IMG/VR virus record: IMGVR_UViG_3300035675_000001
Origin: a virus
Lineage: Duplodnaviria; Caudoviricetes
DNA length: 64,000 nucleotides
Direction: 5' to 3' (one strand)
Under the pieces are notes generated by a model. The model had not been told where the DNA came from. It did not search any database and saw only the letters and a program-made list of their open reading frames with translations. Below, piece after piece: positions 464 through 57,944 of this stretch (positions are counted from its first letter, which is position 1; the number at the start of each line of letters is the position of its first letter). Position numbers and translations under genes: made by a program.

Positions 464-535
464 CGGACGTTTTTGTTTACTTTTTTGGATCGGTCGCCCG
501 CCCTGTAGATACATCGGGGCCGTGTGCCCTCGCTT

Positions 536-967
536 ATGGTCATTAAGAAAAAGAAAGACACGTTCAACGATTACTCGGTGGAACTGAGCTGGGGCCAGCT
601 CAACGCCATCTACCGGGCGCTCGAACAAGACCACGCTGATCCTCTTGCGGATGAGCTTTTTGCTGAGCTTGGCTGGTATCTCCAGAACGTCCCCGGACCC
701 GGTGAGGACGAGGAGGAATACAAGGAGGCCAAGGACGCCGAGAAGCAGGCCATCGAGGGCGGCGAGGAAGCAGGTATGCCTGGTGAACAGCGCAACCCTG
801 ACCTTATCGGCCAGGAGATTGGGGCCGAGGAGCCGGAAGGCGCTGAGGGTCCAGTCGAGGGCCAACCTGCGCCGGGCGGCGAAGAAATGCCGCAGGCCGG
901 AGAACCTGCCGAGCGACCGGAAGCTGCCGAAGCCGATCAATTCCTGGAACGTCCACCCGTTGGTTGA
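536..967 (+). CDS. Acidic hypothetical protein (possible internal head protein)
   Basis: ORF 524..967; ATG 536 preferred; E/P/G-rich tail; TAGATA at 506-511 upstream. Confidence 0.7.
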   Translation: MVIKKKKDTFNDYSVELSWGQLNAIYRALEQDHADPLADELFAELGWYLQNVPGPGEDEEEYKEAKDAEKQAIEGGEEAGMPGEQRNPDLIGQEIGAEEPEGAEGPVEGQPAPGGEEMPQAGEPAERPEAAEADQFLERPPVG

Positions 968-983
968 GTTCTATTTGGCGTGA

Positions 984-1613
984 ATGAGTGCCAATACCTC
1001 ACTACTGACGGACGCCTCCCGGCTATCCGCGACGCAGAACACGGAGAACTACGCCGAGGGCGTTGCCGTCCACATCAACGGCGACTGGTCTCAGCACTAT
1101 CAGTTCGTCGTGATTCCGCAGGCGTGGATTGATTCGTGCGGCAACACCATCCCCGGCAGCCAGCGCCTTCGCATCCCGCTGACGGCTTACAACACGGATG
1201 TCAACGTCGTGGTGCCCATTATTCCGTTCATCCCGCCCACCAGCGGCGTGGCTCCGTCGATCATCACACCCCCGACCGCCAAGAATATCGGCTACGGCGA
1301 AACGGCCCGATTTGCAGTGATTGCAGACGGCACGCCGATGCTGACCTATCAGTGGTATCACAACGGCAATCTCATCCAGGGGGCCACGTCCAACCAACTT
1401 GCCGTCACCAACGCTGCTCTGGACGATGCGGGCCTGTATTCCTGCACCATCAGCAACGACTTCGGCCAGATTACAACCACGCCCGTCCAACTGTATGTCC
1501 AGTGGGCGCAGCGCAACTGGCGCGAAACCACGTTTTGGGAGGATGTGGTGGACTTCTTCGACAGTGGGCCACTCTACGGCCTGCCGCCCGGCACGGTTGA
1601 TGGACCCCTATGA
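984..1613 (+). CDS. Ig-like (I-set) domain virion protein
   Basis: TYQWYHNG..IQGATSNQL..TNAALDDAGLYSCTISN Ig signature. Confidence 0.8.
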   Translation: MSANTSLLTDASRLSATQNTENYAEGVAVHINGDWSQHYQFVVIPQAWIDSCGNTIPGSQRLRIPLTAYNTDVNVVVPIIPFIPPTSGVAPSIITPPTAKNIGYGETARFAVIADGTPMLTYQWYHNGNLIQGATSNQLAVTNAALDDAGLYSCTISNDFGQITTTPVQLYVQWAQRNWRETTFWEDVVDFFDSGPLYGLPPGTVDGPL

Positions 1614-2706: not shown

Positions 2707-3159
2707 ATGCCTGATGTAATTTGTAAACAACTTGAAGCACGGGGTCTGATGACCCCGAACGAACACCAGCTCATCCGTTTCATGTTGGTTTGGGACTCGC
2801 AGAATCCCTTCGCCTCCATGATGGCCAACTTCTACCTGGGCAAAGGCCGCATCCTGGTGGACAAGATGCTCGCAGGTAACCACGATTGGAACGAGTCAGC
2901 CCAGCGCAACAAAGAGATCATCAAGTTCATCGAGGAAAAGAAGTGGCCCGAAGCTTCGATAGGCTACGGCGACATGCTCGTGGACTACATGACCAAATAC
3001 TGGCCCGACTGCGACAATGTGTTTTGGAAAAAAGCCGTCGTGCTCTACCAGGAAGCTAAAGAGCGCATGGCCAAAGGCGAGCCAGTGGTGGGCGTTTGGC
3101 CAACTAAGGCCGATGGTCCTCCACCGGCCTTCCCGTTCAAGCTGACCCGCACTCAGTAA
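2707..3159 (+). CDS. Hypothetical protein
   Basis: 150-aa ORF, 2 nt after previous stop, phage-like codon usage. Confidence 0.7.
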   Translation: MPDVICKQLEARGLMTPNEHQLIRFMLVWDSQNPFASMMANFYLGKGRILVDKMLAGNHDWNESAQRNKEIIKFIEEKKWPEASIGYGDMLVDYMTKYWPDCDNVFWKKAVVLYQEAKERMAKGEPVVGVWPTKADGPPPAFPFKLTRTQ

Positions 3160-4826
3160 GTTTTCAGCGCCAGCATGGACATGTAAACCATGCAATACTG
3201 GTCGCTCGGATTGGTGATCGTAAACTTATTGTCGAACTGCCGGAGCCGAGGCCCGGAGACGGTCCCGTTCAAGGAGAATCCCGGAACATTGGTATCACCG
3301 CCCAGGGGAATAGTCGCCTGGGTTCCATAGCTCTTGACCGTGCCCGCGTTAGCGAAGCTCAGAATGGCGTCAGTGTTCGTCCAATTCACCGAAGCCGGAG
3401 AGGTCGAAAGCGTGTCAGGCATGACGAGCGTGATCGAACCCAGCCATTTGGCGTAATAGTAAAACTTCAAGAAGGCCAGCCCGTGCCCAACTGCCGCATC
3501 GCTCACCTTGTATTCCTGGAAGGTCACGATAGCCGTGCCCGGATACGAAAGCGGGATGTTGAGGTAAGGGCCGTCAGGACCACTTGCAGCCTTGTAGTCG
3601 GCCTCGACGTAAACGGTGCCGGTGCATGTTCTGAACCCATAGGCCGTGGTGGGGGCGCTGAACATCAGGTTCCAGCTCGTGTTCGGAGGAGCCGTAGTCC
3701 ACTGAATCGGACCAGTCGGAGGCAGGACCGCGATGTAAGTTTGGGTCTCTCCACCGACCACATAGGTCACCACATCATTCAGGATGTAAGGCTGCGACGG
3801 GTTATCGGTCGGAGGGTTGCCCCAGGTGCCACGGTAGGTTGGACCGTTGGAGCCTTTGGCAGCGATCAAATCCCACTCAGCCGGATACGTGATGGGATCG
3901 TGGTTCGTGATCGGGAGCGGCGAAACGCAAACATACGAGCTGCCCAGGTATTCCACTCCCTCGTCCTCATTGTAAGTCGTGGCCGGGCTGTAAACGCCCT
4001 TCCAGTCGAACCCAGGATCACCCTTCTTGGCCAGGAAATCCCACCAGAGATCGCCGCCTCCACCCACCGGGACGTTGCCGACGTTGCCTGCTGCTTTGGA
4101 TTTGAACGCTGAGCCGTCGTAGTAAACCACGTCGGTTGCGGTGTAGGCCGTGGAGACCACCCAGGTAGATTGCCAGGTCAGCCCAGGCGATCCGGCAGGA
4201 CCGGTCGGACCAGCTCCGCCGCTAGGCCCCGGAGGACCAGCGGGTCCGGGCGGGCCGGAAGGCGCAATCGAAGCCGACGCCAGCAGAAAGCCAGACGTGG
4301 CTCCCAGGGGGCGCATGGTGAGCAGGATCGAAGCGATCATCTCCAGCGTGGAACCGCCACGGTTCTTGAGCGTGATGATGAACTCGCCCGCCGAGAAGAA
4401 AATGGTGCCGCCCGTGTATTCGGTGGACGTGCTGACCACCTGAGCGCCGGTGGAATTGCCGAAGCTGTTCGGGGTGTAGTAAATGTCCAGCTCCGCACTG
4501 GAGGAGGCCGGGATCGAGGTCACGACCGCATTGAGCACGCGGCACTCAAAGCCGGGCGGGATGCGGAAGTTCTGGATGATCTCCTCGGCATTGGGTGGGA
4601 GCGTGGTCCGCAGCACCGGCATGGGGACAAACTGCTCCTTATTGTTTACAACTTCGATTACCTCGTTGACCTTCTGCGCGATGGCCACGTCACGCTGAGC
4701 CAGGTGCCGGGTCGGGCGCGAAATGCCTGGAACGTCCATCGCATCACCCTCGGTGAAGTGACGCACGTCGTTCTCGCCGTAGTTGATTGCTGCGGCATCT
4801 GGAATGCTTAGTGGGTCGATTGCCAT
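3153..4826 (-). CDS. Collagen-like tail fibre protein with CBM5/12-like repeats
   Basis: GPP-GPA-GPP-GPS-GGA-GPT-GPA-GSP triplets; three W..(T)AY...DVVYY-type repeats. Confidence 0.75.
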   Translation of the reverse strand: MAIDPLSIPDAAAINYGENDVRHFTEGDAMDVPGISRPTRHLAQRDVAIAQKVNEVIEVVNNKEQFVPMPVLRTTLPPNAEEIIQNFRIPPGFECRVLNAVVTSIPASSSAELDIYYTPNSFGNSTGAQVVSTSTEYTGGTIFFSAGEFIITLKNRGGSTLEMIASILLTMRPLGATSGFLLASASIAPSGPPGPAGPPGPSGGAGPTGPAGSPGLTWQSTWVVSTAYTATDVVYYDGSAFKSKAAGNVGNVPVGGGGDLWWDFLAKKGDPGFDWKGVYSPATTYNEDEGVEYLGSSYVCVSPLPITNHDPITYPAEWDLIAAKGSNGPTYRGTWGNPPTDNPSQPYILNDVVTYVVGGETQTYIAVLPPTGPIQWTTAPPNTSWNLMFSAPTTAYGFRTCTGTVYVEADYKAASGPDGPYLNIPLSYPGTAIVTFQEYKVSDAAVGHGLAFLKFYYYAKWLGSITLVMPDTLSTSPASVNWTNTDAILSFANAGTVKSYGTQATIPLGGDTNVPGFSLNGTVSGPRLRQFDNKFTITNPSDQYCMVYMSMLALKTY

Positions 4827-4833
4827 AACGGTT

Positions 4834-4839
4834 TAACTA
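4834..4839 (-). promoter_or_regulatory. TAGTTA motif (putative late promoter)
   Basis: 7 nt before ATG 4826, no SD in spacer. Confidence 0.6.
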
Positions 4840-4841
4840 CC

Positions 4842-5186: not shown

Positions 5187-5893
5187 GTGGTGAAGGGCAG
5201 GGAAAGGTTGAATGTGGCCTGGTTCATCTTCGAGAGGAAGATGGCGTTGACCAGGACTTCACGCGGGGAAGGCCGAAGCACTTCCAGGGATTCAAGGCTG
5301 ACTCGCGGCTCGAACTGGTTGATCGCCTCGTCGATCTCCTGCTGGATCAACGACTGGACGTTGCCATCGTTTGGCTCGAACACGGCCCGCCGCAGATTCG
5401 TGCCGTAGGTCGGGTTCATGACCCGCTCGCCCTTGGATGTGATGAGCAGCATTTTCACCGAAGACTTGAGCACATCCAGGTTGAAACCGGTGTCGAAGTT
5501 CCACTCCTGCTCGTTGGGGAAGCCATCGTCCATCGGCAGGATTGGACCGAACAGATACTTGTCCACGGTGGGAACAAGCTGCTCTGGCTGAATGGTAACG
5601 GTGCTGTAATAGGCCGTCTGATTCGGCGTGGGCTGGAGGTAGTTCCAAGCCAGGATGGTGATGAAGTAGGTGCCCAGGCGCAGGTTCCTGGTCATGTCCA
5701 GGGAGATGGGCTTATGCCCCGGAGTGAACTGAACGGGCGGCGTTCCGTCGTTCCAGTCCAGGCTCGCGCCCACCATGTTGATGGCCGGGTTGCTGTCCGT
5801 GACCACGGCAATGACGTGGACCGAGCCATAGTTCCTGCCCGGCAGAACCATCAGATTCTCCTGCTTGGCCAGGTTACAGGTGATCGTCAGCAT
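5183..5893 (-). CDS. gp25: Baseplate wedge gp25-like protein with N-terminal PKD-like domain
   Basis: LLITSKGERVMNPTYG..LFEP...EAINQFEPRV = gp25/GPW motif; LDWNDGT upstream. Confidence 0.85.
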   Translation of the reverse strand: MLTITCNLAKQENLMVLPGRNYGSVHVIAVVTDSNPAINMVGASLDWNDGTPPVQFTPGHKPISLDMTRNLRLGTYFITILAWNYLQPTPNQTAYYSTVTIQPEQLVPTVDKYLFGPILPMDDGFPNEQEWNFDTGFNLDVLKSSVKMLLITSKGERVMNPTYGTNLRRAVFEPNDGNVQSLIQQEIDEAINQFEPRVSLESLEVLRPSPREVLVNAIFLSKMNQATFNLSLPFTT

Positions 5894-7809
5894 TACATCC
5901 TCTCCGGGTAGAATTGCCGATACGGCTGCTCCGTCTTGGCCTCGTTGAGCGGGCCGGGACCAGAGCCGGTGACGGTCTGGCCTGTTTCAGACTGGCGTTT
6001 CAGCTCCATCGGGTGCCGCCCGTAGGAGGAGATAATCACGTCCCAGCTTCCGATCTCCGCCTTCATGTCCATGCCTTTTCTGCTGAACATGTTCTCGTGG
6101 AGCTTGCGCTTGCCACGGCTGCGGGAGGGAGCCGCTTCGCCCTTGATGCCCTGGCGAAGCTCCTCGACCAGCGCAACAACATCGGGCGACTGGCGCACCT
6201 TGTCTTCGATCTCGCGCAGGATGCGGTAGCTGTAAGGCGCGGGTCGTTTTTGTAAACTTTCCATAGCTGGCTCCTCGATTTCAGAGGGGAGCGCAGTGAT
6301 GAACATGTTCACGACCTCATCGGGCAGGCGCATGTAGCGTTTGAAGATGGTCTCGACCCAGGCTTCGCGGGGCAGGTTGTATTTGGCCATCACGTCGGCC
6401 AGGACATCGAGCACTTCGGCCTGCTGGCGCAGCATCTCCAGCTTCATCTGGTCTTCCAGGCTGCCGATGGGCGGCATCATGGCCTTGATGTCCAGCTCGC
6501 GGATGTCTTTGCCCTTGAGCACCGCGTGGAAGTAGCCGAGCCAGGTGTAGCCGTTGATGACCGGGCGGCGGATGCCCTTGATCTTCCGCAGGAACCTCAT
6601 GTCCTGGGCAAGCAGCGCCTTGCCGCTCATGGCCTGGTCCCCACCGGCGCTGCCGCTCTTGGCACCAAACCAGGAGCGCGGCATACCGATGATCGAGTAA
6701 AAGAGGTCGGTCAGCAGCTCGATGTCGTAAACGTCGGGGATGTTCTGCGTGCCCTGGAGCTTTTCGATGGTGTGCTCGAAGCCGGTGGGCTTGGCGACCC
6801 ACAGGATCGTGTCCAGCGACCAGGCGTTGTAGAAAGCCTGGAAGCCCATCGGGTCCGTGAGGTCTTGCGTCAGGCCGTTACTGCCCTGGTTCTGGAGGCC
6901 AAAGGACAGCTTGCTGCGGAGGGTCTGCTTCCACCGCTGGACCGTCTTCATCTGCTCCATCGGCGGCTGATCCTTGGTGTCGATGTTGATGACGTAGCGG
7001 TCGGGCTGGACCTGGGCGCGGTGGACGACCATCTGGTCAATAGCCAAGCGCAGCTTTTTGTAAATCCCCTGCGCCTCGTCAAAAATCGGTTCGCCGTGCT
7101 CGCTGATGCGGAGCCGATACATGCGCCGGAAGTGGAGCATGTCCCACGGATACCACAGCTCCTCGACGTTTTGGCCGTCGCTGATGGCCACGCGCTCGAT
7201 GGGCGTCTTGTTGTCCGGGTGGACGAACGCAGCTTCCTTGCTGGGCTTGTGGCCGGTCCAGCGGAACCCGACCACCTTGCGATTGCGCTCCAGCCAGTAG
7301 CGGCGAATGTCCATCGGGTGGATGAAGCTCATCCCCAGCACACCTTCGCCGGGCGCGTATTCCAGCTTCTCGAAATGGTTGCCCAGGGAGGCGACGTAGT
7401 AAATCTGCGAGGGCAGCAGCTCCTCCGTGTTCAGATTGACCAGCATCCCGTTCAGTTCATCCTCGAACTCGCGGTCGTTGCACTGATACCAGATCGAGGC
7501 CGGGCTGTTCTGGTCGGTCTGAGTAGCTTCGTCAACAATTTCTACCAGGGCGGCTGCCATCAAGTCCCATCCGGCCATCTCGTCCCAAAGCTGGAGCATG
7601 GCGTCGAAGGTGACAGGACGCCGCATGTAGGCGTTGAACCTTGACCAGACATCCGGGTTGGCGACCCTGCCCGCCTCCTGGAACTCCTTGAACAGCTCTT
7701 GATCTGCTGTGGGCGTGCCTGCCCGTGGAACGAGACTTCCGGTTGGCTGCCCGGATGTCCCGATCATCCCCAGGTATTTCAGCAGGCTTGTTGCAGTCGT
7801 GTTTGCCAT
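5893..7809 (-). CDS. gp20: Portal protein, T4 gp20-like
   Basis: IFDEAQGIYKKLRLAIDQMVVHRAQVQPDRYVINID resembles gp20 LEDA.VIYR..RAPERR.FYID; 638 aa. Confidence 0.85.
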   Translation of the reverse strand: MANTTATSLLKYLGMIGTSGQPTGSLVPRAGTPTADQELFKEFQEAGRVANPDVWSRFNAYMRRPVTFDAMLQLWDEMAGWDLMAAALVEIVDEATQTDQNSPASIWYQCNDREFEDELNGMLVNLNTEELLPSQIYYVASLGNHFEKLEYAPGEGVLGMSFIHPMDIRRYWLERNRKVVGFRWTGHKPSKEAAFVHPDNKTPIERVAISDGQNVEELWYPWDMLHFRRMYRLRISEHGEPIFDEAQGIYKKLRLAIDQMVVHRAQVQPDRYVINIDTKDQPPMEQMKTVQRWKQTLRSKLSFGLQNQGSNGLTQDLTDPMGFQAFYNAWSLDTILWVAKPTGFEHTIEKLQGTQNIPDVYDIELLTDLFYSIIGMPRSWFGAKSGSAGGDQAMSGKALLAQDMRFLRKIKGIRRPVINGYTWLGYFHAVLKGKDIRELDIKAMMPPIGSLEDQMKLEMLRQQAEVLDVLADVMAKYNLPREAWVETIFKRYMRLPDEVVNMFITALPSEIEEPAMESLQKRPAPYSYRILREIEDKVRQSPDVVALVEELRQGIKGEAAPSRSRGKRKLHENMFSRKGMDMKAEIGSWDVIISSYGRHPMELKRQSETGQTVTGSGPGPLNEAKTEQPYRQFYPERM

Positions 7810-7816
7810 ACGCTTT

Positions 7817-7822
7817 TAACTA
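7817..7822 (-). promoter_or_regulatory. TAGTTA motif (putative late promoter)
   Basis: 7 nt before portal ATG, no SD. Confidence 0.6.
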
Positions 7823-7854
7823 CCAAAAAGAACGGGAACCCTGGTCAACGATTC

Positions 7855-7860
7855 CGTTCT
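7855..7860 (+). promoter_or_regulatory. CGTTCT motif
   Basis: 7 nt before ATG 7868. Confidence 0.5.
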
Positions 7861-7867
7861 ATCGAGC

Positions 7868-8391: not shown

Positions 8392-8806
8392 ACTCCTCAC
8401 CCGGAAAGTCCTCCGGCCTGACCTCGATCTGGACGCCGGTGCGGGCCTGCCCGTCCTTGACGAACCGAAAGAGCTTAGGCTCACGCGGAGAAGCTATTAG
8501 CCGGATGAGAGGAGTCAGGACTTCCTGGGGAAGTCGTCGGAAGGAAAGCTGGACAATCACGCCATCGGCAGGAGCTTTGGTTTCTTTCTCCTCCTCCGCC
8601 TCATTGAACACCCCGTCCTCCACTTGGTCGTCAGTATCGGCTTCGATGCCGGGCTTGAAGACCGTCACGTCGGCGAGGTTGGCCATGAGAGCGGGCTGCG
8701 ATTGAAGCCGCAGCATGAGCCGGTTGACATAGACGGCGATCTTCTTGTCGATGTTCGCGTCTGCCAGCTTCTCGATCAGCAAAATGGCCAATTCACGGTC
8801 GGTCAC
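8375..8806 (-). CDS. Hypothetical protein
   Basis: GTG start, TAGTTA 4 nt upstream (8811-8816), GTGA overlap with upstream stop. Confidence 0.7.
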   Translation of the reverse strand: MTDRELAILLIEKLADANIDKKIAVYVNRLMLRLQSQPALMANLADVTVFKPGIEADTDDQVEDGVFNEAEEEKETKAPADGVIVQLSFRRLPQEVLTPLIRLIASPREPKLFRFVKDGQARTGVQIEVRPEDFPGEEYDYAF

Positions 8807-8997
8807 GCCCTAACTACGTCTTCGGAGCGGAATTTATTGCGGGCACCAAAATACTCGCGTAGCGCCTGCGATACCAGCCGTCGAAGCCAGTCTTTGGGCA
8901 AACGGGACCGACCGGTAGAGAACAGTGGAGATACCTCTGACGTGACCTCACACACTTCTTGACCGTTCACCTGTAAGCAATAAAGCTTCACGAACAT
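8803..8997 (-). CDS. Small hypothetical protein
   Basis: ATG 8997 (MFVKLYC); CGTTCT at 9014-9019 upstream. Confidence 0.55.
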   Translation of the reverse strand: MFVKLYCLQVNGQEVCEVTSEVSPLFSTGRSRLPKDWLRRLVSQALREYFGARNKFRSEDVVRA

Positions 8998-9082
8998 AAC
9001 TCGCACACCTACCAGAACGGATTGGGAGTAGCCTCCAGTCGCATCTAAGCGCATTACCGATCAATTTGTCATCGCTATAAAC

Positions 9083-9088
9083 CGTTCT
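9083..9088 (+). promoter_or_regulatory. CGTTCT motif
   Basis: 7 nt before sbcD-like ATG 9096. Confidence 0.5.
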
Positions 9089-9095
9089 TCCCTCC

Positions 9096-10133: not shown

Positions 10134-10375
10134 AGAAGTTCATTCCGCTGGCCCTGCTGGCGCTCACCGGGTGCATACCGATGGGTAAGAGCACCCACCT
10201 GGTTCTCGGCGTGGGGGTGTTCCGGGTTCAGAGCACCAATGAGGTCACGGTCGTCAAAGCCAACACCCTGGGGGTCCACGCTGGAGCCGGTCGGTTGAAC
10301 GTCGGCCTGTCCAGCGTCATGACGGCCAGCATCCCAACCAACAGCAACACGATCCTGGAGATCAAGGGTAGATAG
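10130..10375 (+). CDS. Predicted lipoprotein
   Basis: MKKFIPLALLALTG-C signal peptide with lipobox. Confidence 0.7.
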   Translation: MKKFIPLALLALTGCIPMGKSTHLVLGVGVFRVQSTNEVTVVKANTLGVHAGAGRLNVGLSSVMTASIPTNSNTILEIKGR

Positions 10376-11715: not shown

Positions 11716-11727
11716 GTTCTTTCTGGC

Positions 11728-16524: not shown

Positions 16525-16543
16525 CGACCTAACTACCCACGGA

Positions 16544-17128: not shown

Positions 17129-17136
17129 ATTCGGGT

Positions 17137-17142
17137 AGAACG
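17137..17142 (-). promoter_or_regulatory. CGTTCT motif
   Basis: 8 nt before groES ATG; TGTAAACA core 11 nt upstream. Confidence 0.5.
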
Positions 17143-18211: not shown

Positions 18212-18215
18212 GCTG

Positions 18216-38487: not shown

Positions 38488-38495
38488 ACAAAACT

Positions 38496-39839: not shown

Positions 39840-40330
39840 GAGGTCGGGAATGGGGCAGGCACCACAACGCCGGGACCGGCGTGGTAGCTCTTGCTCCAAA
39901 GGTCCGGGCACCCAAAGGTGTCAGTGCGGCTCATCGCCATCTGCTCCCACTTCAAGCGGGAATCCACCTGGGCGCGGATATTGCCGCCGCCGCCGACGCA
40001 CTTGATCTCGATAAACGGCGCGTTGATGTAGAAGTCAACGACGCGCTTGCCGAGAGGCGCGATAGCATACTGGGGCGTAATGGACGAACGGGTGCCGGAA
40101 GGACCGTCATCCGGGGTCTGCTGGACCTGGAAATAGACAGTGGTGCCGTTGCTGACGTTTTCGATGGTCAGGTGGACCTTGCTGTCTTCCAGGTCGATGC
40201 CCGCGTAGTTGGTGCCGAAAGAGTAGTCAGCGACTCGCAGCCGACTGCCGACGTAACCCGAAACCATCGGGCACATCACCCAAGTCGTGCGAATCAACGG
40301 TTCAACGTATGCGCCTGGTTCCATAATCAC
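39836..40330 (-). CDS. Putative virion beta-sandwich protein
   Basis: HLTIENVSNGTTVYFQVQQ; ATGA-coupled. Confidence 0.6.
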   Translation of the reverse strand: MIMEPGAYVEPLIRTTWVMCPMVSGYVGSRLRVADYSFGTNYAGIDLEDSKVHLTIENVSNGTTVYFQVQQTPDDGPSGTRSSITPQYAIAPLGKRVVDFYINAPFIEIKCVGGGGNIRAQVDSRLKWEQMAMSRTDTFGCPDLWSKSYHAGPGVVVPAPFPTS

Positions 40331-41799
40331 TCAGCTCCGGTTGCGACGGGCATGGGACGCTTGCCCGGCCTAAATTCCTCGTCACCAGCCAGGTCTTCCT
40401 CGCCGCCTTCGCCTGGCTCCAGCTCCTCTCCTTCTTCGGGGAGTTCCGGCGCTTCGCCGCCCTCGGCAGCCTCGGCGGCAGCCAGATCGGCGAGCAGGTC
40501 ACGGATTTCACGAAGTAGGCCCAGGGCCACATTATCCTGGGTGGACGCGCCGACCGCGCTATCCGATACCGGTGGTTCCACCGGCATGTCAGCGCCAGAA
40601 GGCGGGGGCATCTCGCCCACATCGTCCAAACCGCCCAGCTCGTCACCCATCTCGACCACGAGCCTGCGGGCGTTCTCTACGACTTTGGCTTCTTGCAGTG
40701 TCAGCAGCGTTTTCATGTTCGTCATACTATCTACTCCTTCTGTCTTGAGGAACCTGTTGCCGAGAAATTGACGCCGCAGGAGCTTATTCATGGTGCTCGG
40801 TGCGGCCTTCTTTTTCGCTGGCGCGGGTGCCGGTTTCTTGGCTGCCGCAGCCGCTTTGGGCGTGGGCTTAGCCGGTTTTTTCGTTGGTTTCGCCGGGGGT
40901 GCGGGGGCAAATCCCCGCCCACGTTGGCCGGGCGGCGTGGCCAGAGGGGGTGCCGGAGCCTTCGGCGGCTTGGGCGCAGCCGGGGGCTGAGGCGGCATGG
41001 GAGCCTTGCCATACTTGGCTTTGAGTTCCTGCGGCGACAGCGGCTCTTTGTGCCACGGCTCCATTGGGATACCGGGCAATTCAATGGGCGTAGCCACAGC
41101 CAGCTTGTTCGGCAGCTTGTTCTGCTGCTCAGGCGGTAAGCCGATGTTGCGGCGAGCCTTAGCGGCAGCAATGAGCGCATCGCGTTGACGGGCTTTCTGC
41201 ATCTCCGCATCGAAATTCAGCCAGCGTTTGGTCGCCTTCGCGGTGAGCTTATCCAGGCGATCCGTGGGACCGACATCATCCGGGAAACCAGAGAGCAGAC
41301 CGTAAATGAAGTCCCGCGTGGCTAAAATATGTTTACAAAGTCCAGGCAATCCCTGCGGATTGGTCTTCCTGGGTGCTCGCCGGATGCACTGGTTGAGCGA
41401 GTTCTTGCCGATGGGTCCGGCCTTCTTCTGGTGGTTGGCCCAGGCCCAGCGGTAGCGGTAATCCGGGCACATGCAATCGACCTCAACGGGCAACTGCGAG
41501 AGCGGGGTGTTCTTGCCCTTATGGCTGCGCTTGGGCTTGCGGAACCGGACATAGCCACGGTGCCGCAGGCCGGTGGTGGAATGGCCCGGCGCGGACTTGG
41601 CGTTGAAGTAGTAAGAGAAGACCCAGTGGTTGGGAGTCTGGTAAGACTCGACCTCCATCGGGGGGATGCGGACGAAGTGGGACCGGTAGAACCGCTTCGG
41701 CTCCGACATGCGATAGAGCTTGTCGTAGGTCAGGTATTCCTGGAGGAGTTCCAGGCTCTCGACCGCTTCCATCAGCTCTTGAAATCGCATCCCACGCAT
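40327..41799 (-). CDS. SWIM-type zinc-finger protein with P/A/K-rich linker and acidic tail
   Basis: VDCMCPDY...GLCKHILA (C-x-C-xn-C-x-H). Confidence 0.7.
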   Translation of the reverse strand: MRGMRFQELMEAVESLELLQEYLTYDKLYRMSEPKRFYRSHFVRIPPMEVESYQTPNHWVFSYYFNAKSAPGHSTTGLRHRGYVRFRKPKRSHKGKNTPLSQLPVEVDCMCPDYRYRWAWANHQKKAGPIGKNSLNQCIRRAPRKTNPQGLPGLCKHILATRDFIYGLLSGFPDDVGPTDRLDKLTAKATKRWLNFDAEMQKARQRDALIAAAKARRNIGLPPEQQNKLPNKLAVATPIELPGIPMEPWHKEPLSPQELKAKYGKAPMPPQPPAAPKPPKAPAPPLATPPGQRGRGFAPAPPAKPTKKPAKPTPKAAAAAKKPAPAPAKKKAAPSTMNKLLRRQFLGNRFLKTEGVDSMTNMKTLLTLQEAKVVENARRLVVEMGDELGGLDDVGEMPPPSGADMPVEPPVSDSAVGASTQDNVALGLLREIRDLLADLAAAEAAEGGEAPELPEEGEELEPGEGGEEDLAGDEEFRPGKRPMPVATGAE

Positions 41800-42363: not shown

Positions 42364-42375
42364 TAATTACGTTCT
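42364..42375. promoter_or_regulatory. Abutting divergent motifs TAATTA (-) and CGTTCT (+)
   Basis: ccc TAATTA CGTTCT ctctggc ATG. Confidence 0.55.
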
Positions 42376-42382
42376 CTCTGGC

Positions 42383-48594: not shown

Positions 48595-48697
48595 AATCGT
48601 TCAATTTCAAAGGTTTGCGCCACATCGGCGCGTTCTTACGCTCTAACTACCCCTGGTTGGGCATGAAAAAAATGTAAACAAAAGTGCATTTACCCCC

Positions 48698-48726
48698 TTG
48701 ACGGCGAACTTTTTATCGTTTACAGT
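48698..48726 (+). promoter_or_regulatory. Host sigma70-type early promoter
   Basis: TTGACG-17 nt-TACAGT. Confidence 0.7.
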
Positions 48727-48736
48727 TTTGACCAGA

Positions 48737-49105
48737 ATGAATGCTACGAACATCCAGTCGAACTTGAAACAGATCGAGCGCACCTTCCAGGTCGCGCTGT
48801 TCAACGAGACCCGCGAGCTGAAAGCCAACGGCTTCCAGTTCACCGGCCAGCCCGAACCCACCCGCTTTCACGCCAACGGGGTCGTGGCCGTGCGCTACCG
48901 CACGAGCCGCAAATTGCACCTGGCCAGCGTGGAGATCGAGACCAAGCCCGAAGAAGTGGAGCGCCTGACCAAGCACCCCTTCAACTGGCGCAAAGGCGAC
49001 GGCATCGCCTACCGCGTGACCGGCTTCCGCAGCTTTGGCAACTTCCGTTCCGTGCTCATCCCCCTGGACTGGGCCGACAAATTCACCCCTGACCGCTTTG
49101 CCTGA
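48737..49105 (+). CDS. Early hypothetical protein
   Basis: ATG 48737 (MNATNIQ) 10 nt after -10 box. Confidence 0.7.
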   Translation: MNATNIQSNLKQIERTFQVALFNETRELKANGFQFTGQPEPTRFHANGVVAVRYRTSRKLHLASVEIETKPEEVERLTKHPFNWRKGDGIAYRVTGFRSFGNFRSVLIPLDWADKFTPDRFA

Positions 49106-52088: not shown

Positions 52089-53543
52089 TTAGCCGATGAC
52101 GGAACCGAAGGTCGTCGGGGAGTTCTGCACCAAGCCCCGGCAATACATCTTCGAGTTAATCATCTTCCGGGCGAAGCTCGTTGCAAAGCCCCGCTGGTGG
52201 ATGAAGTCGGGCAACACCACATCAGGCGTGGTGTAGAGTTTCTGGTATTCAGCCAAAACGTAGCCCGTGGTGAGGAACTGATCGCCCTTGTGTCCGACCA
52301 ACCACTCGTTGACCGGGAAGTGCGGGTCCGCAAACACCTTCTTGTTGCCGAGATCACCCAGGTAGGTGATGCCCTGCATCTGAGTCCGGGCATTGCGGGC
52401 CACGAACTGAGGCAGAGTGGCAACAACCGTCGCAGCCTGGAGGCCGAGGAGCAGCCAATTTCCGGCGACCATGTTGGTTGCGCCGAAGATGAAGTTGCTC
52501 GCCGTCTCGAAGGCGTCGATGATGCTGAACTTGTGGGTCTGGTAGTTCACCGAGGGCGGAGCCACGGCGTCCCAAACCACGAAGCCAGCGTCGGCACGAG
52601 CACGCAAATCGAAAATGACTTGGCGGTGCTTCTGGTAGGTCAACGCATTCGTCAGGGCGTTGAGCAGGACGCTCTCAGCCTTGATGTTATACATTGCCTG
52701 GAGGTTCTGATCCGCTTCCTCGGACCAGAGAGTCTTGAGCTTCATCACCTTCGCCGTGACCGGCGTGGAGCTGAGCTTCATCTCGTAGTCCTGGATGTTC
52801 AGGTTGCCCTCAGCGTTGAACGCATAGGTCGCGCTGTAGGTCGCGGCTGCCGCAACACCAGTGATGGTGATAGCGCCGGTGACGTAGTTCACCGTGCCGC
52901 CCAGGATGGCACCAACCGGAAGGATGTTGCCATTGCTGTCATCAGTGGTCACGTCCGAGCCAACCGTGATCGTCACGGTCCCGGCGCGGATCGGATACCA
53001 CTCCAACTGCCCGGCGTTGCCCGACAGGGTGCCGGTCTCGTCCTGAACGAGTTCGTCACCGTCGTCGTCGCGGTCCACCGCGCCTTGCAGAGCACGCCAC
53101 ATGGGAGCGCCAGCAGGGGTGCGGCCTTTGCGCCGACCGGTCACGATGTCCATGTAAACGATCTGGCTCACCGGACCAGCCATAGGCTGGAGGGCGACGA
53201 GCTGGTCGATCACATCGTTCTCGGACATGTTCGCAATGATGGGGAAAATCCATTTGTCGAACGTGCCCAGGGACGTGGTGCGAGTCACTTCGTCGAGTTG
53301 ACCGAAGCGGCTGCGGCAGTTTTCGAGCATAATCGCCGTGTAGGCCCGTTTGTGTTCGGGCATGTGGGCGACGAACTCCTTCCAGCCTTTGGCTTCCCAA
53401 AGGCCCTTGGGATTTTTGTCGGTAATTCCGACCGGCGTTTCGGCAAGTTTGTAACCCCATTCCAGCGTTTCCGTGAAACGGGCGATATGACCGCCGTTGG
53501 TCGCCAGCATCGGCCTACCGGTTACTGAGTCTTGAATAACCAT
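52089..53543 (-). CDS. gp23: Major capsid protein, T4 gp23-like
   Basis: AIMLENC, VALQPMAGPVSQIVY, VTAKVMKLKT.WSEEADQNLQAMYNI, RGFATSFA. Confidence 0.95.
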   Translation of the reverse strand: MVIQDSVTGRPMLATNGGHIARFTETLEWGYKLAETPVGITDKNPKGLWEAKGWKEFVAHMPEHKRAYTAIMLENCRSRFGQLDEVTRTTSLGTFDKWIFPIIANMSENDVIDQLVALQPMAGPVSQIVYMDIVTGRRKGRTPAGAPMWRALQGAVDRDDDGDELVQDETGTLSGNAGQLEWYPIRAGTVTITVGSDVTTDDSNGNILPVGAILGGTVNYVTGAITITGVAAAATYSATYAFNAEGNLNIQDYEMKLSSTPVTAKVMKLKTLWSEEADQNLQAMYNIKAESVLLNALTNALTYQKHRQVIFDLRARADAGFVVWDAVAPPSVNYQTHKFSIIDAFETASNFIFGATNMVAGNWLLLGLQAATVVATLPQFVARNARTQMQGITYLGDLGNKKVFADPHFPVNEWLVGHKGDQFLTTGYVLAEYQKLYTTPDVVLPDFIHQRGFATSFARKMINSKMYCRGLVQNSPTTFGSVIG

Positions 53544-53598
53544 AGGTTTCGCTTTTCTCTTTGTTGTTTGCTGTTCCGGTTAAGTTGGCTGACAACCA

Positions 53599-55266
53599 TC
53601 AGCCTTGAACGGTCGCTTTGGACAGCCGCGTAACCATTCCGATGGCTTCGTTGAGGCCGCGAGGATCGCTCGGTGTTGCACTAAGGATTGTCACCCCTTC
53701 GGTAACCGGTGCCTTGGGGTTACCTTCGGCTGGCGTAGCCGCAGGTTTCTTGTCCTCCGTCACGGACGGAGCCGCCGCCTGCTTCTTGGTCTCATCGACC
53801 TTGCCCGCAGGTGCGCCTTCGGTTTTACCCGCAGGCGAATTGGGTTTCTTGCCTTCGCAGAGGGCGCGGATGGCAACCAGGTCACGCGGCTTGGTCGCTT
53901 CCTTGAGGGCCTTCTGGATTTCAGGAGTCTGAGCCTTCTCAGCGAACTCCAGTTGGATGACCCGTTTGCCCATCTCGGTCACGTCGGCCTTGTATTTGGC
54001 CGCGAGTTGCTGGAGGGCTTCGGAGGCCATCATGAAGCGGCGGCGATACTTCGACGACTCAGCTTCATTGGCTTTGGCCAACTGCCGCCAGGCTTGCCCG
54101 CGCTCCACGACTTCGTTGAGCAGGGCCGACTGACGACCGGCCTGTTTGATGGACTCGCCGAGCTTGTTCTTGAAGGTCAGGCCAGTCGTTGCGACAGCCT
54201 TGATGACCTGCATCAGCTTGGTGTTGTCCTCGTTCAGCTTCGAGGCCCGTTTACCGGGCGCGAGCTGCGCTTCCTGCCAGGTGTTCTCAATGGCTTTGAT
54301 CTCATCGTGGAGCTGCGTTCCCTGCCAAGAACGCTTCGCGTCCTCAGCAACGAAATTGGCAACCTCCTGATGGAGCGCACCCAGTTGAGACATCCCTTCG
54401 GCGAATTGCTGCGGGCCGAGCTTTGACGGCTCTGTGGCCTTGAACGTAGCAAGCGCCTGTTTGATCTCGTTCACGTTCATAGTTTTAACTTGGGATGATT
54501 CCGTTGTTTTTACGGGAGTTGACGCCCCCGATGTTGAAGCCTGAGAACCCCGCTCAGTCTCCAAAGTGTTGGTTTTCGGTGGGGCAGCCGGAGGAGCTGG
54601 AGCAGCGGTCGGTGGGACCGCATTTTCAGCCAGAGTTGTGGCTGGAGACGACAAAGCAGCCTTTTGATCGGCTGCTTCGGCGGTGACAGTTTCGCGGGGA
54701 GGATTCAGCTCGGCGGTTTCAAACGACGGCTTAATCACAACATCCCAGCCCTCGCACACGTAATCGTCCTGGACATCATCCACGCCGTCGTGCGCCCGGA
54801 CCAGGCTGCCAAACCCACGACTGGAAACGAGCGGGTTGTAGCCCGCTTCGATCAACGCCCTGAGTTTGTTTCCTTCCTCCGTTCCGAGAACCTGGATTTC
54901 TCCAGTGACCTCCCAAATTTCTTTGCCGGTATTGGCTTCCCGGCCCGGTTGCAACTTGGCATCGGTGACCAAGTGCGAAATCGGCGATAGGAGCGTGACC
55001 TGGCCATCTTTGGGATGCTCCAGGAGACCGAAAGCTGCGTTCTTCGCTATCGCCGACATGAGAGTCGAGCCTTGTGACAGGTTCTTCTCCCAAACGCGCT
55101 TGCCGTATCTGCGGTTGTTGCCGTTAATGCAGTCGCAAACCGAAAAGCGCCCAGGAATCCTGGTTCGAGTCTTCCCGTTGGGCAAGGACTCGACCACGAT
55201 CTTCTGAACATCAGCGACGAAGGGGAACGCACCCTTCACGCCTTCTGCAAGATATTGTCGCGCCAT
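53599..55266 (-). CDS. gp21: Prohead protease (gp21-like) fused to scaffold-like coiled coil
   Basis: INGNNRRY, LLEHP, VSSRGFGS, WDVVIKPS; ATG 55266 (MARQYLAEG). Confidence 0.9.
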   Translation of the reverse strand: MARQYLAEGVKGAFPFVADVQKIVVESLPNGKTRTRIPGRFSVCDCINGNNRRYGKRVWEKNLSQGSTLMSAIAKNAAFGLLEHPKDGQVTLLSPISHLVTDAKLQPGREANTGKEIWEVTGEIQVLGTEEGNKLRALIEAGYNPLVSSRGFGSLVRAHDGVDDVQDDYVCEGWDVVIKPSFETAELNPPRETVTAEAADQKAALSSPATTLAENAVPPTAAPAPPAAPPKTNTLETERGSQASTSGASTPVKTTESSQVKTMNVNEIKQALATFKATEPSKLGPQQFAEGMSQLGALHQEVANFVAEDAKRSWQGTQLHDEIKAIENTWQEAQLAPGKRASKLNEDNTKLMQVIKAVATTGLTFKNKLGESIKQAGRQSALLNEVVERGQAWRQLAKANEAESSKYRRRFMMASEALQQLAAKYKADVTEMGKRVIQLEFAEKAQTPEIQKALKEATKPRDLVAIRALCEGKKPNSPAGKTEGAPAGKVDETKKQAAAPSVTEDKKPAATPAEGNPKAPVTEGVTILSATPSDPRGLNEAIGMVTRLSKATVQG

Positions 55267-55441
55267 GATTAGAGCAGATGAGTCTGCAAAACTACGAGTA
55301 ACCACAACACGGGACTTAACGCCCTGGCGCTTTACGGGGGACGCTCCTAAGACGATTGGAAATCAATTTGTCACTGCTAAAAACCGTCCACAATTTCTGC
55401 CCCATTCAAGTCACTCCCGTAAACTCTTTCGACTGAAAGCG

Positions 55442-55795: not shown

Positions 55796-56562
55796 CCCAT
55801 GAAACGCCGGAAGGAATTGTAAACAGTTTTGCCGTCGCCTTCCTTGTGCTCAGGCATGAGGGAAGCGCCGGGCTGAGCTGGAGTCATGGCGTTGGCGACC
55901 TTGGCGGCGATCTCAGCCGGATCGGCCATCGTGGCGACCATCGACTCGGCCATTGCCTGGAGTTCTTCGGGAGCAGGGTTCTGACGCCCCAGGATCGTGT
56001 CCATGACGCCTCTGGCGCTGGCCGAGGACGAAGTGCTGGGCTGGGTCATCGGCTGCTCACGGCCCATCTGCTGCGCGGCAGCGACGGACGGCGGGGGCAT
56101 GGGCCGCTCGGCAGGCTTCGGGGGTGCCGGAACCTGAGATGGATCAAGCTGTTGGAAGACGTTGGGGGTTACATCCGGCGCTACCAGGGCGGCGGTTGGT
56201 TGAATCAGCTCCTCACCCGCCACGTTGGTCGTAGCCTGGGGTTCTGCCGGGCCGTCTGCCGGAGGAAGCGGGTCCGTGCGGATGCCAGGGATGTTGGCCG
56301 CGCCGGTCATGTTGTCCATGCTTTGGGCGTCGGGCGGAATGATCGACTCGTCATCGGCTTCGGTCATGCCGATAATGCTGGCGACAACGCTGCTTTGACG
56401 GGCCTTCTGCCTGAGCTTATCGTCGTCTTTGTCTTTGGGCGGCACAGTCCGCTGCCTGCGCGGATCGTTGCGCTTGCCCGCCAACACGGGCGGCACGTCG
56501 CTCTCGTCCACCGGCCCTCTGCCGACCGGCTGCTTGCCAAGGATTTGGTCAACAAGGCTCAT
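55792..56562 (-). CDS. P/A/Q-rich hypothetical protein (possible internal head protein)
   Basis: GGAG SD; IIGMTEADDE junction. Confidence 0.7.
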   Translation of the reverse strand: MSLVDQILGKQPVGRGPVDESDVPPVLAGKRNDPRRQRTVPPKDKDDDKLRQKARQSSVVASIIGMTEADDESIIPPDAQSMDNMTGAANIPGIRTDPLPPADGPAEPQATTNVAGEELIQPTAALVAPDVTPNVFQQLDPSQVPAPPKPAERPMPPPSVAAAQQMGREQPMTQPSTSSSASARGVMDTILGRQNPAPEELQAMAESMVATMADPAEIAAKVANAMTPAQPGASLMPEHKEGDGKTVYNSFRRFMG

Positions 56563-57017
56563 CGTCCTACTCCAAGAATTTGCCTGGCCGGGTAGCCCTC
56601 AGCTTCTTCGGGCGTTTCGACCGAGGCTGGTTCAGTCGTGGCTAAGTCTTCACCAGGCACGCCTTCTTCGCCAGGAATGCTGCCAGAAGAATCATCCCCG
56701 CCCTGCTGCTCCAGGCGCTCGTCAGCAACCTTAGCCATCTCGATAGCCCCCTCGCGCCCAATGGCAAACACGAGCTTCACAGCTTCCTGGTTGCTCATGG
56801 TCATGAAGCGGGCAACCACTTCCTCGCGGTTGCCAGGCCACATCTTGGCCAGCTCGTTGACCTGAGTGTCTTCGGGAGTTCCGAGCGCAGCGGGACCGTC
56901 AGCTTCGGGCTTCGGCTGTGGCTTGGACTTCGGCTCAGCCGTAGGCTTTTCGGCCTTGGGCTTCTTCTCTTTATCGTCGGCTTCGGCCTCGCCGAGAATG
57001 CGTCTGATGATGTCCAT
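56559..57017 (-). CDS. Acidic hypothetical protein (possible internal head protein)
   Basis: IIRRILGEAE start; TAGTTA 6 nt upstream (57024-57029). Confidence 0.7.
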   Translation of the reverse strand: MDIIRRILGEAEADDKEKKPKAEKPTAEPKSKPQPKPEADGPAALGTPEDTQVNELAKMWPGNREEVVARFMTMSNQEAVKLVFAIGREGAIEMAKVADERLEQQGGDDSSGSIPGEEGVPGEDLATTEPASVETPEEAEGYPARQILGVGR

Positions 57018-57026
57018 ACGCCCTAA

Positions 57027-57944
57027 CTACGCGGGCGCATCGACCAAAACATACTGTCCGAGATTGTCCACCGGGATACCCATTCCGCTATGGCCCCCGG
57101 CGATCTTCGGCAGCCGCAGATAAAAAGGCCGGTAGATCGGCTCCTGGCCGTAACGCTTGCTGATGTAGGACATGACCTCGTAGGACTCGTGATCCGCCAG
57201 CTTGCGCTCAGCACCGCCGAAGCTGGTGGGCACGTCCTGGTGCCGGAGCATCGGCTGCGGGAACTCCAGATCGAGGCAGTTCTGCATTTGGCCATCCAGG
57301 TTGATGAATCCACCCAGCCTCGCTCGGATGGTGTAGTCGCAGTGCTCCTCGCCGAAACGACCGAAACGCGCATCGAAGTAACCGATCCTGTCGAAGCAGG
57401 CGCGGGTCACTGACATCATGATGCCAGTCATGCGCGGAAGAAGCTTCACTTTGTAGCCGCGAGAATTGACCGTGACCCAGCGGTAGGTTTCAGGCGCACC
57501 AGAGATGGCCGGTGATGCCTGGGTGAAGTCGCAAAAGCAAAACATGCCCACGTCCAGGTCTTCATGGCCGCGAGCATAAAAGTTTACAAAATCACCCACG
57601 ACGAACAGGTCGTCGTTGAGCAGGCACAGATGGTCACACCCGGTTTCAGAAAACCACTTGAGCGCCCGGTTCGAGTTTCCCGCTACGCCCAGGTTGGTGC
57701 TGCCCAGGAACACCTGGATGTTTGGACCCAGGTGAGCACCGCTGTATTCCGCCGCCAACAGGTCAATCCGGTCCTGGACCTTGACCGGCGCGGGTCCGCG
57801 CAGGAAGGTCTCTGTCCCGTCGCGCTGGCCGCAATCCTCGAAGATCGCAGTTGGATACTGCGAGCAGTGTTGGGAAAGCCCGGAGAGGCAGTCCTTGAGC
57901 GCGTTGACGCGATTATACGTGAGGATGGCGACGGCTGATTTCAT
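57027..57944 (-). CDS. GT2 family glycosyltransferase
   Basis: AILTYNRVNALKDCL..IFEDCG..NLGVAGNSN..LLNDD..GYFDARFGRFGEEHCDY. Confidence 0.85.
   Translation of the reverse strand: MKSAVAILTYNRVNALKDCLSGLSQHCSQYPTAIFEDCGQRDGTETFLRGPAPVKVQDRIDLLAAEYSGAHLGPNIQVFLGSTNLGVAGNSNRALKWFSETGCDHLCLLNDDLFVVGDFVNFYARGHEDLDVGMFCFCDFTQASPAISGAPETYRWVTVNSRGYKVKLLPRMTGIMMSVTRACFDRIGYFDARFGRFGEEHCDYTIRARLGGFINLDGQMQNCLDLEFPQPMLRHQDVPTSFGGAERKLADHESYEVMSYISKRYGQEPIYRPFYLRLPKIAGGHSGMGIPVDNLGQYVLVDAPA

Follow-up and report, generated by a model that had tools for sequence, protein, structure and literature searches.

What does a short word of DNA do that stands, time after time, a few nucleotides (nt) ahead of the start codons of virion genes? 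The question is raised by a stretch of 64,000 nt (the window, by which the whole stretch analysed is always meant) from IMG/VR virus record IMGVR_UViG_3300035675_000001, a virus of the Caudoviricetes (Duplodnaviria), in which TAGTTA and its close variants precede fibre, portal and sheath genes. An original prediction had proposed that this word, in the relaxed form TAnnTA, is a lone late promoter that yields near-leaderless mRNAs. The window has a GC content of about 59% and about 75 tightly packed genes on both strands. They encode a gp23-type major capsid protein (52089-53543), a gp21-type prohead protease (53599-55305), a portal (5893-7809), a tail sheath (31810-34020), fibre-like proteins (3153-4826 and 34088-35257), parts of a baseplate hub/lysozyme, SbcC and SbcD, a GroES-like protein, a primase and a UvsX-like RecA (Pfam RecA/Rad51). 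A nucleotide near-identity search of phage records gave no match to the window, and tblastn of the capsid and sheath proteins against phage records gave only matches below 30% identity, with no close cultured phage; uncultured relatives are numerous in IMG/VR, where they form a large clade with contigs reaching 238 kb. The size of these contigs and the T4-type gene set point to a T4-related lineage of jumbo phages. The reading that we consider probable, while leaving it a good share of doubt, is that G-TAG(T/A)TA is a phage-specific, lone late promoter of the gp55 type giving leaderless or near-leaderless mRNAs. Enrichment of the word, its orientation, the law of its spacing, its conservation across the clade, its partition between gene classes and the presence of a gp55-like sigma protein are direct observations, and they are taken up in turn.

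Within the window TAGTTA occurs ten times against 3.45 +/- 1.77 in dinucleotide-preserving shuffles, none of which reached ten. Eight of these copies lie 4-12 nt ahead of a start, in the sense direction (binomial P = 5e-16 for a random position), the two exceptions being an intragenic copy at 35397 and a copy with a long leader at 48644. When the hexamers in the 30 nt before independently called starts were counted blindly, TAGTTA ranked first and TAGATA third. All 16 sites listed in the original prediction reproduced in coordinates, strand and distance to the start, and every one is sense-oriented to its downstream gene; the list had missed two copies, TAGATA at 10369 (6 nt) and TAGTTA at 48644 (49 nt). 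The sites are given below, with the neighbouring letters in lower case, lengths of products in amino acids (aa), and L001, L002 and L003 denoting individual relatives.

4833-4840, minus strand: gTAGTTAa, 7 nt to ATG 4826 of a 557-aa tail fibre protein; TAGTTA or TAATTA kept in 9 relatives.
7816-7823, minus strand: gTAGTTAa, 7 nt to ATG 7809 of the portal gene, heading a leftward operon divergent from 7868 (plus strand); kept in 6 relatives with spacers of 4-9 nt.
8810-8817, minus strand: gTAGTTAg, 4 nt to GTG 8806 (143 aa), within the 3' end of the upstream open reading frame (ORF) 8803-9054; orthologs have GTG or ATG at the same position.
16529-16536, minus strand: gTAGTTAg, 5 nt to ATG 16524 of a 1397-aa protein; orthologs have spacers of 4-5 nt and GTG or ATG.
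18215-18222, plus strand: gTAGTTAa, 12 nt to ATG 18234 (63 aa), heading a rightward unit; orthologs have spacers of 5 and 7 nt.
26236-26243, minus strand: gTAGTTAc, 4 nt to GTG 26232 (268 aa), heading a leftward operon whose divergent neighbour starts 19 nt away at ATG 26252 (or 13 nt away at TTG 26246); L001, L002 and L003 keep it at spacers of 4, 5 and 7-8 nt.
38176-38183, minus strand: aTAGTTAc, 4 nt to ATG 38172 (216 aa), operon head in a 12-nt divergent gap; kept in L003 with spacer 4.
57023-57030, minus strand: gTAGTTAg, 6 nt to ATG 57017 (152 aa), its TAG terminating the gene upstream; kept in 9 relatives at spacers of 4-8 nt.
48643-48650, minus strand: gTAGTTAg followed by GAGC-GT, 49 nt to ATG 48594; a leadered copy.
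35261-35268, minus strand: gTAGATAg, 4 nt to ATG 35257 of a 389-aa fibre-like protein, its TAG being the upstream stop; identical in L001, TAGTTA with spacer 5 in L003.
34039-34046, minus strand: gTAGATAg, 19 nt to ATG 34020 of the tail sheath gene, with a purine-rich leader; word and leader kept in L001-L003.
10368-10375, plus strand: gTAGATAg, 6 nt to ATG 10381 (137 aa).
505-512, plus strand: gTAGATAc, 12 nt to GTG 524 or 24 nt to ATG 536.
37161-37166, minus strand: TACTTA, 6 nt to ATG 37154 (90 aa); degenerate, with a perfect TAGTTA at the orthologous site of L001.
36826-36831, minus strand: TATTTA, 4 nt to ATG 36821 (518 aa); degenerate, with TAGATA and spacer 7 at the orthologous site of L001.
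42364-42369, minus strand: TAATTA, 5 nt to ATG 42358; an accepted variant.
40728-40733, minus strand: TAGATA, 2 nt to ATG 40725, in frame inside ORF 40327-41799, with GAAGGAG at the distance of a Shine-Dalgarno sequence (SD).
25427-25432, minus strand: TACTTA, 10 nt to ATG 25416; the spacer GAGGGATAAC holds GAGGG, an SD, and membership is doubtful.

The association is far stronger when the whole clade is considered. For this purpose 80 related loci were collected, of which 54 non-redundant ones were kept and joined with the window into a set of 782 kb, and each of the 4096 hexamers was scored by the copies for which a start at most 12 nt downstream opened a coding-like ORF of at least 50 codons. 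TAGTTA ranked first, 74 of its 173 copies (43%) being start-adjacent (0-12 nt) against a background of 1.2% (p ~5e-93); its own overlapping shifts came next and then GTTCTA (30/154), while no SD-like hexamer appeared among the 40 most start-associated. The enrichment ahead of starts that had been proposed is thus borne out by shuffles, by the blind ranking of hexamers and by the clade-wide scan. The degenerate form TAnnTA, on the other hand, was too loose a description. TACTTA (3/55 copies start-adjacent in relatives) and TATTTA (4/74) are weak by themselves, TAATTA being the sole clear variant (12/54), and in L001 the counterparts of the two weak window sites at 37161 and 36826 read TAGTTA and TAGATA, respectively. 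What the counts support as the core is G-TAG[T>A]TA, where A is tolerated in place of G3. Searches at genome scale made use of five near-complete relatives (G001-G005, G001 being the L003 record and G004 the L064 record), in which the full form TAGTTARRGYRTG has 16 copies, 15 of them on the same strand, against one copy of its reversed control. The shorter GTAGTTA, compared with its reversed control, is enriched and strongly strand-biased in G002, G003 and G005, not enriched in G001 (23 vs 31) and depleted in G004 (8 vs 48), the depletion being consistent with avoidance of the word outside functional sites.

Stop codons in two of its frames keep the word out of much coding sequence, and in a GC-rich, densely packed genome it could pile up without any function at A/T-rich gene junctions, the more so as in 30 of 87 sites the preceding gene ends on its TAG (or TAR). 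Such a by-product of stop codons is very improbable. Control hexamers of the same composition, one-letter variants and stop-containing words (TAGTAT, TTAGTA, TGATTA, TAGGTA, TAGCTA, TAATTG) are start-adjacent in 0-6% of their copies (0-4% for the permuted and one-letter-changed ones), whereas TAGTTA reaches 43%; roughly half of the sites (44/87) have no co-directional coding ORF ending within 150 nt; and the exact word is retained across orthologs at 50-90% protein identity whose flanks have diverged. Termination-reinitiation was considered together with the stop-codon idea, and both were rejected on the controls and on the sites that lack an upstream gene.

The anatomy of the element was defined by aligning 87 sites on the word. 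The consensus reads G at position 0 (71%), TAG at 1-3, T more often than A at 4, TA at 5-6, and then R, R, G; beyond these come a pyrimidine at position 10 (82% of the sites), a purine at 11 (86%) and T at 12 (62%). Upstream of the word nothing resembling a -35 partner was found, since the weight matrix of the 87 sites holds at most 0.14 bit of information at each position from -29 to -1. The distance to the start codon follows a strict law. In 103 sites the spacer is 4 nt in 48, 5 nt in 6, 6 nt in 12 and 7 nt in 18 (36 sites at 5-7 nt), with few longer ones. Eight sites were scored with less than 4 nt and are mostly artefacts (two apparent TTG starts at spacer 0 are ATG starts at spacer 6, and two others are TAAATA), so that about two real ones remain. 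At the modal spacer the word occupies -10 to -5 as counted from the start codon, and start codons begin at position 11 or later, essentially never earlier. Such a sharp lower edge is what is expected if the start codon must lie within the transcript. The computational tests run all point towards the lone, T4-late-like element that had been proposed: it lacks a -35 partner, it is kept across the clade and its spacer has an edge at 4 nt.

The letters around the edge carry a signature of their own. Of the 43 sites with spacer 4, 42 have a pyrimidine immediately ahead of the start codon and 20 start with GTG, a codon that opens 34 of 331 genes elsewhere (odds ratio 7.6, p = 4.5e-8). None of the 23 starts at spacers 6-7 is GTG, yet GC-GT is still found at positions 9-12, in the arrangement TAGTTA-RRGC-GT-ATG. 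Since the Y-R-T of positions 10-12 is kept when the start codon lies further on, the preference is a property of the word rather than of the start codon. The starts at position 11 are genuine: ATG and GTG alternate there in several orthogroups, and the 8806 site has an in-frame stop 3 nt upstream and ortholog N-termini that are conserved from there. A fixed transcription start site predicts the hard edge at 4 nt, the pyrimidine at -1 with a purine at +1, and the confinement of GTG to the edge; a ribosome-binding element or a nuclease site predicts none of them.

We infer from this pattern a mechanism comprising promoter activity, an exact start site, pairing with a sigma factor, late timing and leaderless translation. 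The host RNA polymerase (RNAP) carrying a phage sigma factor, most likely the gp55-like protein of 344 aa described below, would read G-TAG(T/A)TA and begin transcription 5 nt past its final A, on a purine in the context Y(-1) R(+1) T(+2), which would put the word at -10 to -5. In roughly one promoter out of two this +1 purine would be the A or G of the ATG or GTG itself, and the mRNA would be leaderless; most of the remaining ones would give leaders of 1-5 nt, and a few, such as those of the sheath gene and of 48594, ordinary leaders. Translation would then follow the leaderless pathway and would need no ribosome-binding site. Such a mechanism agrees with the accepted rule by which leaderless genes are recognised, a -10-like signal some 10 bp ahead of the start codon (PMC3160421).

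The scarcity of SD sequences in this phage fits leaderless translation. Only about 3-5 of the ~75 genes of the window have GGAG, GAGG or AGGA at SD distance (5893, 25416, 56562), and in the clade an SD accompanies about 10% of plausible starts. At short-spacer sites an SD core is present in just 4 of 66, and the word itself, 4 nt away from the start, is not an SD. The claim that the spacers contain no SD is correct for the window sites with three exceptions: 25427 has the spacer GAGGGATAAC, and at 40728 and 4834 the word is directly adjoined by GGAG or GAGG. Leadered copies with an SD (4/12, probably of one orthogroup) are too few to use. The same scarcity can be turned around: if SD sequences are rare another aid to initiation is needed, and the word could act in the mRNA, as a non-SD initiation element recognised by the ribosome, by a ribosomal protein or by a RegA-like phage regulator. 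A very tight spacing with a mode of exactly 4 nt, and copies that stand beside starts within operons and overlap the upstream stop codon in 30 of 87 sites, would suit such an element. It is nevertheless distinctly unlikely. The word is present at only about one fifth of the genes and the rest also lack an SD; its spacing is cut off sharply at the lower end instead of scattering symmetrically around an optimum; conserved copies exist with leaders of 19-49 nt, as in the sheath gene; and there is no translational rationale for GTG starts only at spacer 4, nor for a Y-R-T that is kept when the ATG lies 2-3 nt further. To our knowledge UAGUUA has no complementarity to the usual 3' tail of 16S rRNA, which also counts against action in the mRNA.

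Comparison of orthologous genes shows what is conserved in these junctions. The 103 sites fall into 56 orthogroups, within which the word stays constant while the spacer (4-9 nt) and the start codon (ATG or GTG) drift, as in the 152-aa gene at 57017, the fibre gene at 4826 and the portal gene. In the sheath gene the word and a purine-rich leader of 19 nt are kept in three relatives (L001-L003), and the sequence 5' of the word is not conserved. Four copies of the window head transcription units in very short divergent gaps (7809/7868, 26232/26252, 38172/38185 with a 12-nt gap, and 18234), the gaps at 7809, 26232 and 38172 measuring 12-58 nt. Operon heads placed in this way must have a promoter, and the word is the sole conserved element there. 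This bears on the idea that UAGUUA is a processing site, at or just after which a phage or host endoribonuclease cuts polycistronic late transcripts and so frees cistrons with very short leaders, in the manner of the leaderless mRNAs made by MazF or the cuts of T4 RegB. Processing would explain the sense orientation, the proximity to starts, the copies inside operons and the lack of an upstream partner, but separate promoters would then be needed at the heads with 12-58-nt divergent gaps, where nothing else is conserved; the preference for a purine or GTG at position 11 and the co-conservation of a gp55-like sigma would also be left unexplained, and no nuclease candidate was identified. We regard a processing site as quite improbable.

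The promoter that we favour would serve a particular class of genes. As had been stated beforehand, those downstream genes that can be identified encode virion proteins (fibre, portal, sheath, fibre-like), most of the others being unannotated, whereas the genes of the DNA-metabolism class (SbcC, SbcD, GroES, an exonuclease) lack the word and carry GTTCT instead, as does a baseplate-hub gene. The designation of the class as late is assigned from this gene content. Nearly every unit head of the window has one of three start-adjacent signals, namely the TAGTTA-type word, GTTCT[A/C/T] or a sigma70-like promoter. Clade-wide, the mode of the distance of GTTCTA from the start is 6-7 nt, and in the window three GTTCT copies (447, 17128 and 27383) are preceded, at a distance of ~11 nt, by TGTAAACA or its complement, a layout resembling that of T4 middle promoters, in which a MotA box is followed at ~12 bp by a -10 element.

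Which protein could read the word? Two neighbouring genes of the window encode sigma-like proteins.

60139-61173, minus strand: sigma-like protein of 344 aa, with an N-terminal gp55-like sigma domain 2, a C-terminal Mor-like helix-turn-helix and an acidic aromatic tail.
58659-60176, minus strand: second sigma-like protein, of 505 aa, overlapping the 344-aa gene by 38 nt, with a C-terminal domain like YjbR and the MotA C-terminal domain.

The first of them is the protein that the original prediction had named; it has a sigma domain-2 fold and matches the gp55 family in 9 of 11 orthologs. An AlphaFold2 model built with 11 orthologs has a mean pLDDT of 71, rising to 84-90 over residues 20-110, and its best 50 structural matches in the PDB are all sigma factors. 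Residues 21-122 superpose on domain 2 of sigmaE bound to -10 DNA (4lup_A, Z 11.1, root mean square deviation (rmsd) 2.2 A, 91/91 residues), and the Pribnow-box domain of SigC is matched nearly as well (2o7g_A, Z 9.8, rmsd 2.5 A, 88/88 residues). T4 gp55 is a member of PHROG 234 (phrog_234), and the hidden Markov model of this family matches the 9 orthologs with a best E of 4e-5, the window copy giving E 0.14 in the same relaxed per-ortholog scan. A six-frame search of the five near-complete relatives with phrog_234 returned exactly this ORF in 3 of 5 (E 1e-5 to 2e-4), the best genome match covering model positions 8-152 of 181. The C-terminal part belongs to phrog_836, a Mor-like activator family, in 10 of 11 orthologs, and one homolog has Pfam Mor PF08765. 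Phrog_836 was considered as the gp33 family and rejected, T4 gp33 being phrog_254, and no homolog of gp33 (phrog_254) was found in the five relatives. The extreme C-terminus (60139-60180, minus strand) carries a conserved GE(Y/H)x(V/I)Y with acidic residues and resembles the T4 gp55 tail SLDFLYEAND, which is the epitope by which gp55 binds the sliding clamp. At least 328 clusters of this sigma-like protein exist, on contigs of up to 250 kb.

The 505-aa protein is also sigma-like, over residues ~46-268 (sigma28 and sigmaE, Z 7-8.4), and it ends in a domain like YjbR and the MotA C-terminal domain (Z 7.7-7.8, rmsd 2.7-2.8 A), residues 403-505 matching the YjbR/DUF419 fold and, by Foldseek, the C-terminal DNA-binding domain of T4 MotA. 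The models thus suggest that it may be a sigma factor fused to a MotA-like reader of the box in the TGTAAACA...GTTCT class; it could alternatively read TAGTTA, the former being more likely. The possibility that the word is a real promoter with another reader (this protein, a host sigma factor or an undetected phage RNAP of the phiKZ/AR9 kind) deserves some weight, although it is unlikely. Two sigma-like genes coexist with at least two phage-specific classes of motif, and RNAP subunits of jumbo phages often escape Pfam models. The domains of Rpb1/Rpb2-type multisubunit RNAPs (PF00562, PF00623) were not found in the five near-complete relatives, with controls positive in 14 of 14, although very divergent subunits could escape such a search; that with PF00940 was uninformative, its control giving no signal anywhere. 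As no phage RNAP domains were found, the host RNAP is the likely enzyme. A gap of 4 nt does resemble that of promoters that reach +1, such as TATG of phiKZ and AACA-N6-TA/G of AR9 (PMC5312081). The match to the gp55 family, nonetheless, sits on the 344-aa protein, T4 gp55 is the paradigm for lone late promoters of the -10 region, and the additional DNA-binding domain of the 505-aa protein would better suit the bipartite TGTAAACA...GTTCT class.

Several observations weigh against a gp55-type promoter read by the 344-aa protein and giving leaderless messages. The assignment of the sigma factor is indirect: the protein had no match by Pfam (sigma models included), PHROGs at E <0.001, phmmer against PDB sequences or tblastn against phages; an hhalign comparison with the single sequence of T4 gp55 was not significant; and the second sigma-like gene adjoins the first. 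At 4 nt, the gap from the element to +1 falls short of that of T4 (5 nt) and of sigma70 promoters (~6 nt), so that with T4 geometry transcription would start inside the start codon of the spacer-4 class, and the word fits neither TANNNT nor TATAAATA. The major capsid gene (52089-53543), the most abundant late gene, has no copy of the word upstream. Several spacer-7 sites in relatives have a full SD between the word and the ATG (e.g. TAGTTAgggaggtATG), which tells against this reading because it would be lost from a transcript starting at position 11. In the window, sites 40728 and 25427 fit ordinary SD-led starts; the former is probably not a working promoter of this kind, and the latter, a doubtful member, is better explained in that way. 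Finally, the RNA-labelled runs in which the phage was found consist of assembled contigs and are silent on the 5' ends of transcripts.

How far do known systems accommodate such an element? The late promoters of T4 consist of a lone 8-bp box (TATAAATA) at -13 to -6, have no -35 element and are read by gp55 with gp33 and the gp45 clamp (PMC2988020). Like the word studied here they are short single elements placed before many individual virion genes on either strand, and the phage shares with T4 a core set comprising a gp23-like capsid protein, a gp21-like protease, a sheath, SbcCD (gp46/47), a UvsX-like recombinase and the gp55-family sigma-like protein. The differences are substantial. GTAG(T/A)TA has only T1, A2 and A6 in common with TATAAATA; its spacer is G/C-rich (RRGY), whereas that of T4 is A/T-rich; it lies 4 nt and not 5 nt from the presumed start and abuts the start codon; leaderless messages are predicted here, whereas the late mRNAs of T4 have leaders with an SD; and the sigma protein has 344 aa, with extra domains including the Mor-like helix-turn-helix, against 185 aa for T4 gp55. 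In Actinobacteria and Deinococcus-Thermus a TANNNT signal that resembles a -10 box, some 10-12 bp ahead of the start codon, distinguishes the leaderless genes (Zheng et al. 2011, PMC3160421; Shell et al. 2015, PMC4633059). There too a promoter-like word stands at a fixed short distance, no SD is present and GTG is accepted as first codon; the word of the phage, however, ends in A, is 2 nt closer to the start and is specific to one class of phage genes instead of being the -10 box of host housekeeping genes. The late promoters of phiKZ (TATG, with G as +1) and AR9 (AACA-N6-TA/G), which are read by the non-virion RNAP of the phage (PMC5312081), are likewise very short, start-proximal consensus words before individual late genes, also inside operons. 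These phages encode their own multisubunit RNAPs and give long leaders, with 5' untranslated regions of 26-491 nt in AR9 and no leaderless transcripts in phiKZ (PMC8244752), whereas here the word abuts the start codon and RNAP genes were not found in the five relatives. The word seems to work like a T4 late promoter and like the -10 signal adjacent to leaderless genes, but its sequence and geometry place it with neither. A full-text search of the literature for TAGTTA together with promoter and phage returned nothing relevant.

A wider picture can be sketched, although we hold it tentatively and would not be surprised to see parts of it fail. In a widespread clade of T4-related jumbo phages most virion genes would be truly leaderless, nearly half of them starting with GUG, under a 7-bp promoter with a 4-nt gap that is read by an enlarged gp55-type sigma factor (domain 2, a Mor-like DNA-binding domain and a tail like the clamp-binding one). 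Together with the GTTCT and sigma70-type promoters this would form an almost SD-free programme, pointing to a possibly verrucomicrobial host or to a ribosome modified by the phage and specialised for leaderless initiation. If the favoured reading is right, the simple rule GTAG(T/A)TA-N4-RTG would allow late promoters, sites of transcription initiation and authentic start codons to be annotated across hundreds of genomes of uncultured jumbo phages. The gp55 paradigm would be widened to another recognition word, another geometry and a larger sigma factor, which may preserve features lost in T4, and the clade would provide, as far as the literature search showed, the first T4-related lineage with leaderless late messages, many of them initiated at GUG. 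It would also constrain the translation apparatus of the host and offer a compact orthogonal pair of promoter and sigma factor.

DNA runs containing this phage come from wetland, soil and subsurface metagenomes. A search of RNA runs for 31000-38500 listed none. Four small runs labelled metatranscriptomic WGS, from the same wetland study, contain 13 short contigs of a 20-kb stretch, 10 of which lie inside the capsid gene, and one RNA-labelled piece (53490-53640) spans the junction of protease and capsid genes. The contigs in 52100-53640 may reflect capsid mRNA; they are not evidence of relative expression, because the runs were found using the capsid gene. Upstream of this gene (53544-53598, minus strand) there is a 35-nt leader that is A/C-rich and G-poor. 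About 40 nt upstream of the gene TTAACCGRAAC is conserved in many relatives, and in some relatives TAAATA or TAATTA stands 2-6 nt before the capsid ATG instead. A scan of the window with Rfam found no family.

Non-virion genes (SbcD, SbcC, GroES, a hub protein and others) have the word (C)GTTCT[A/C/T] 6-9 nt ahead of their starts, in the window at the following positions.

456-461, minus strand: GTTCT-class word.
7856-7861, plus strand: GTTCT-class word.
9084-9089, plus strand: GTTCT-class word.
11716-11721, plus strand: GTTCT-class word.
17136-17141, minus strand: GTTCT-class word.
27368-27373, plus strand: GTTCT-class word.
42371-42376, plus strand: GTTCT-class word.

A sigma70-like promoter, TTGACG-N17-TACAGT, is found at 48698-48739 (plus strand), with its -10 box 10 nt before ATG 48737 and overlapping a GTTTACA word; from its position it would also yield a near-leaderless mRNA. 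The ORF 40327-41799 (minus strand) is an open frame of 490 codons with an odd composition, whose internal start at 40725 (GAAGGAG-TAGATAGT-ATG) is kept with its SD in L001 and L003, an arrangement that suggests a nested or C-terminal product of 132 aa. Many other genes of the window begin at ATGA or TGATG overlaps with the gene upstream.

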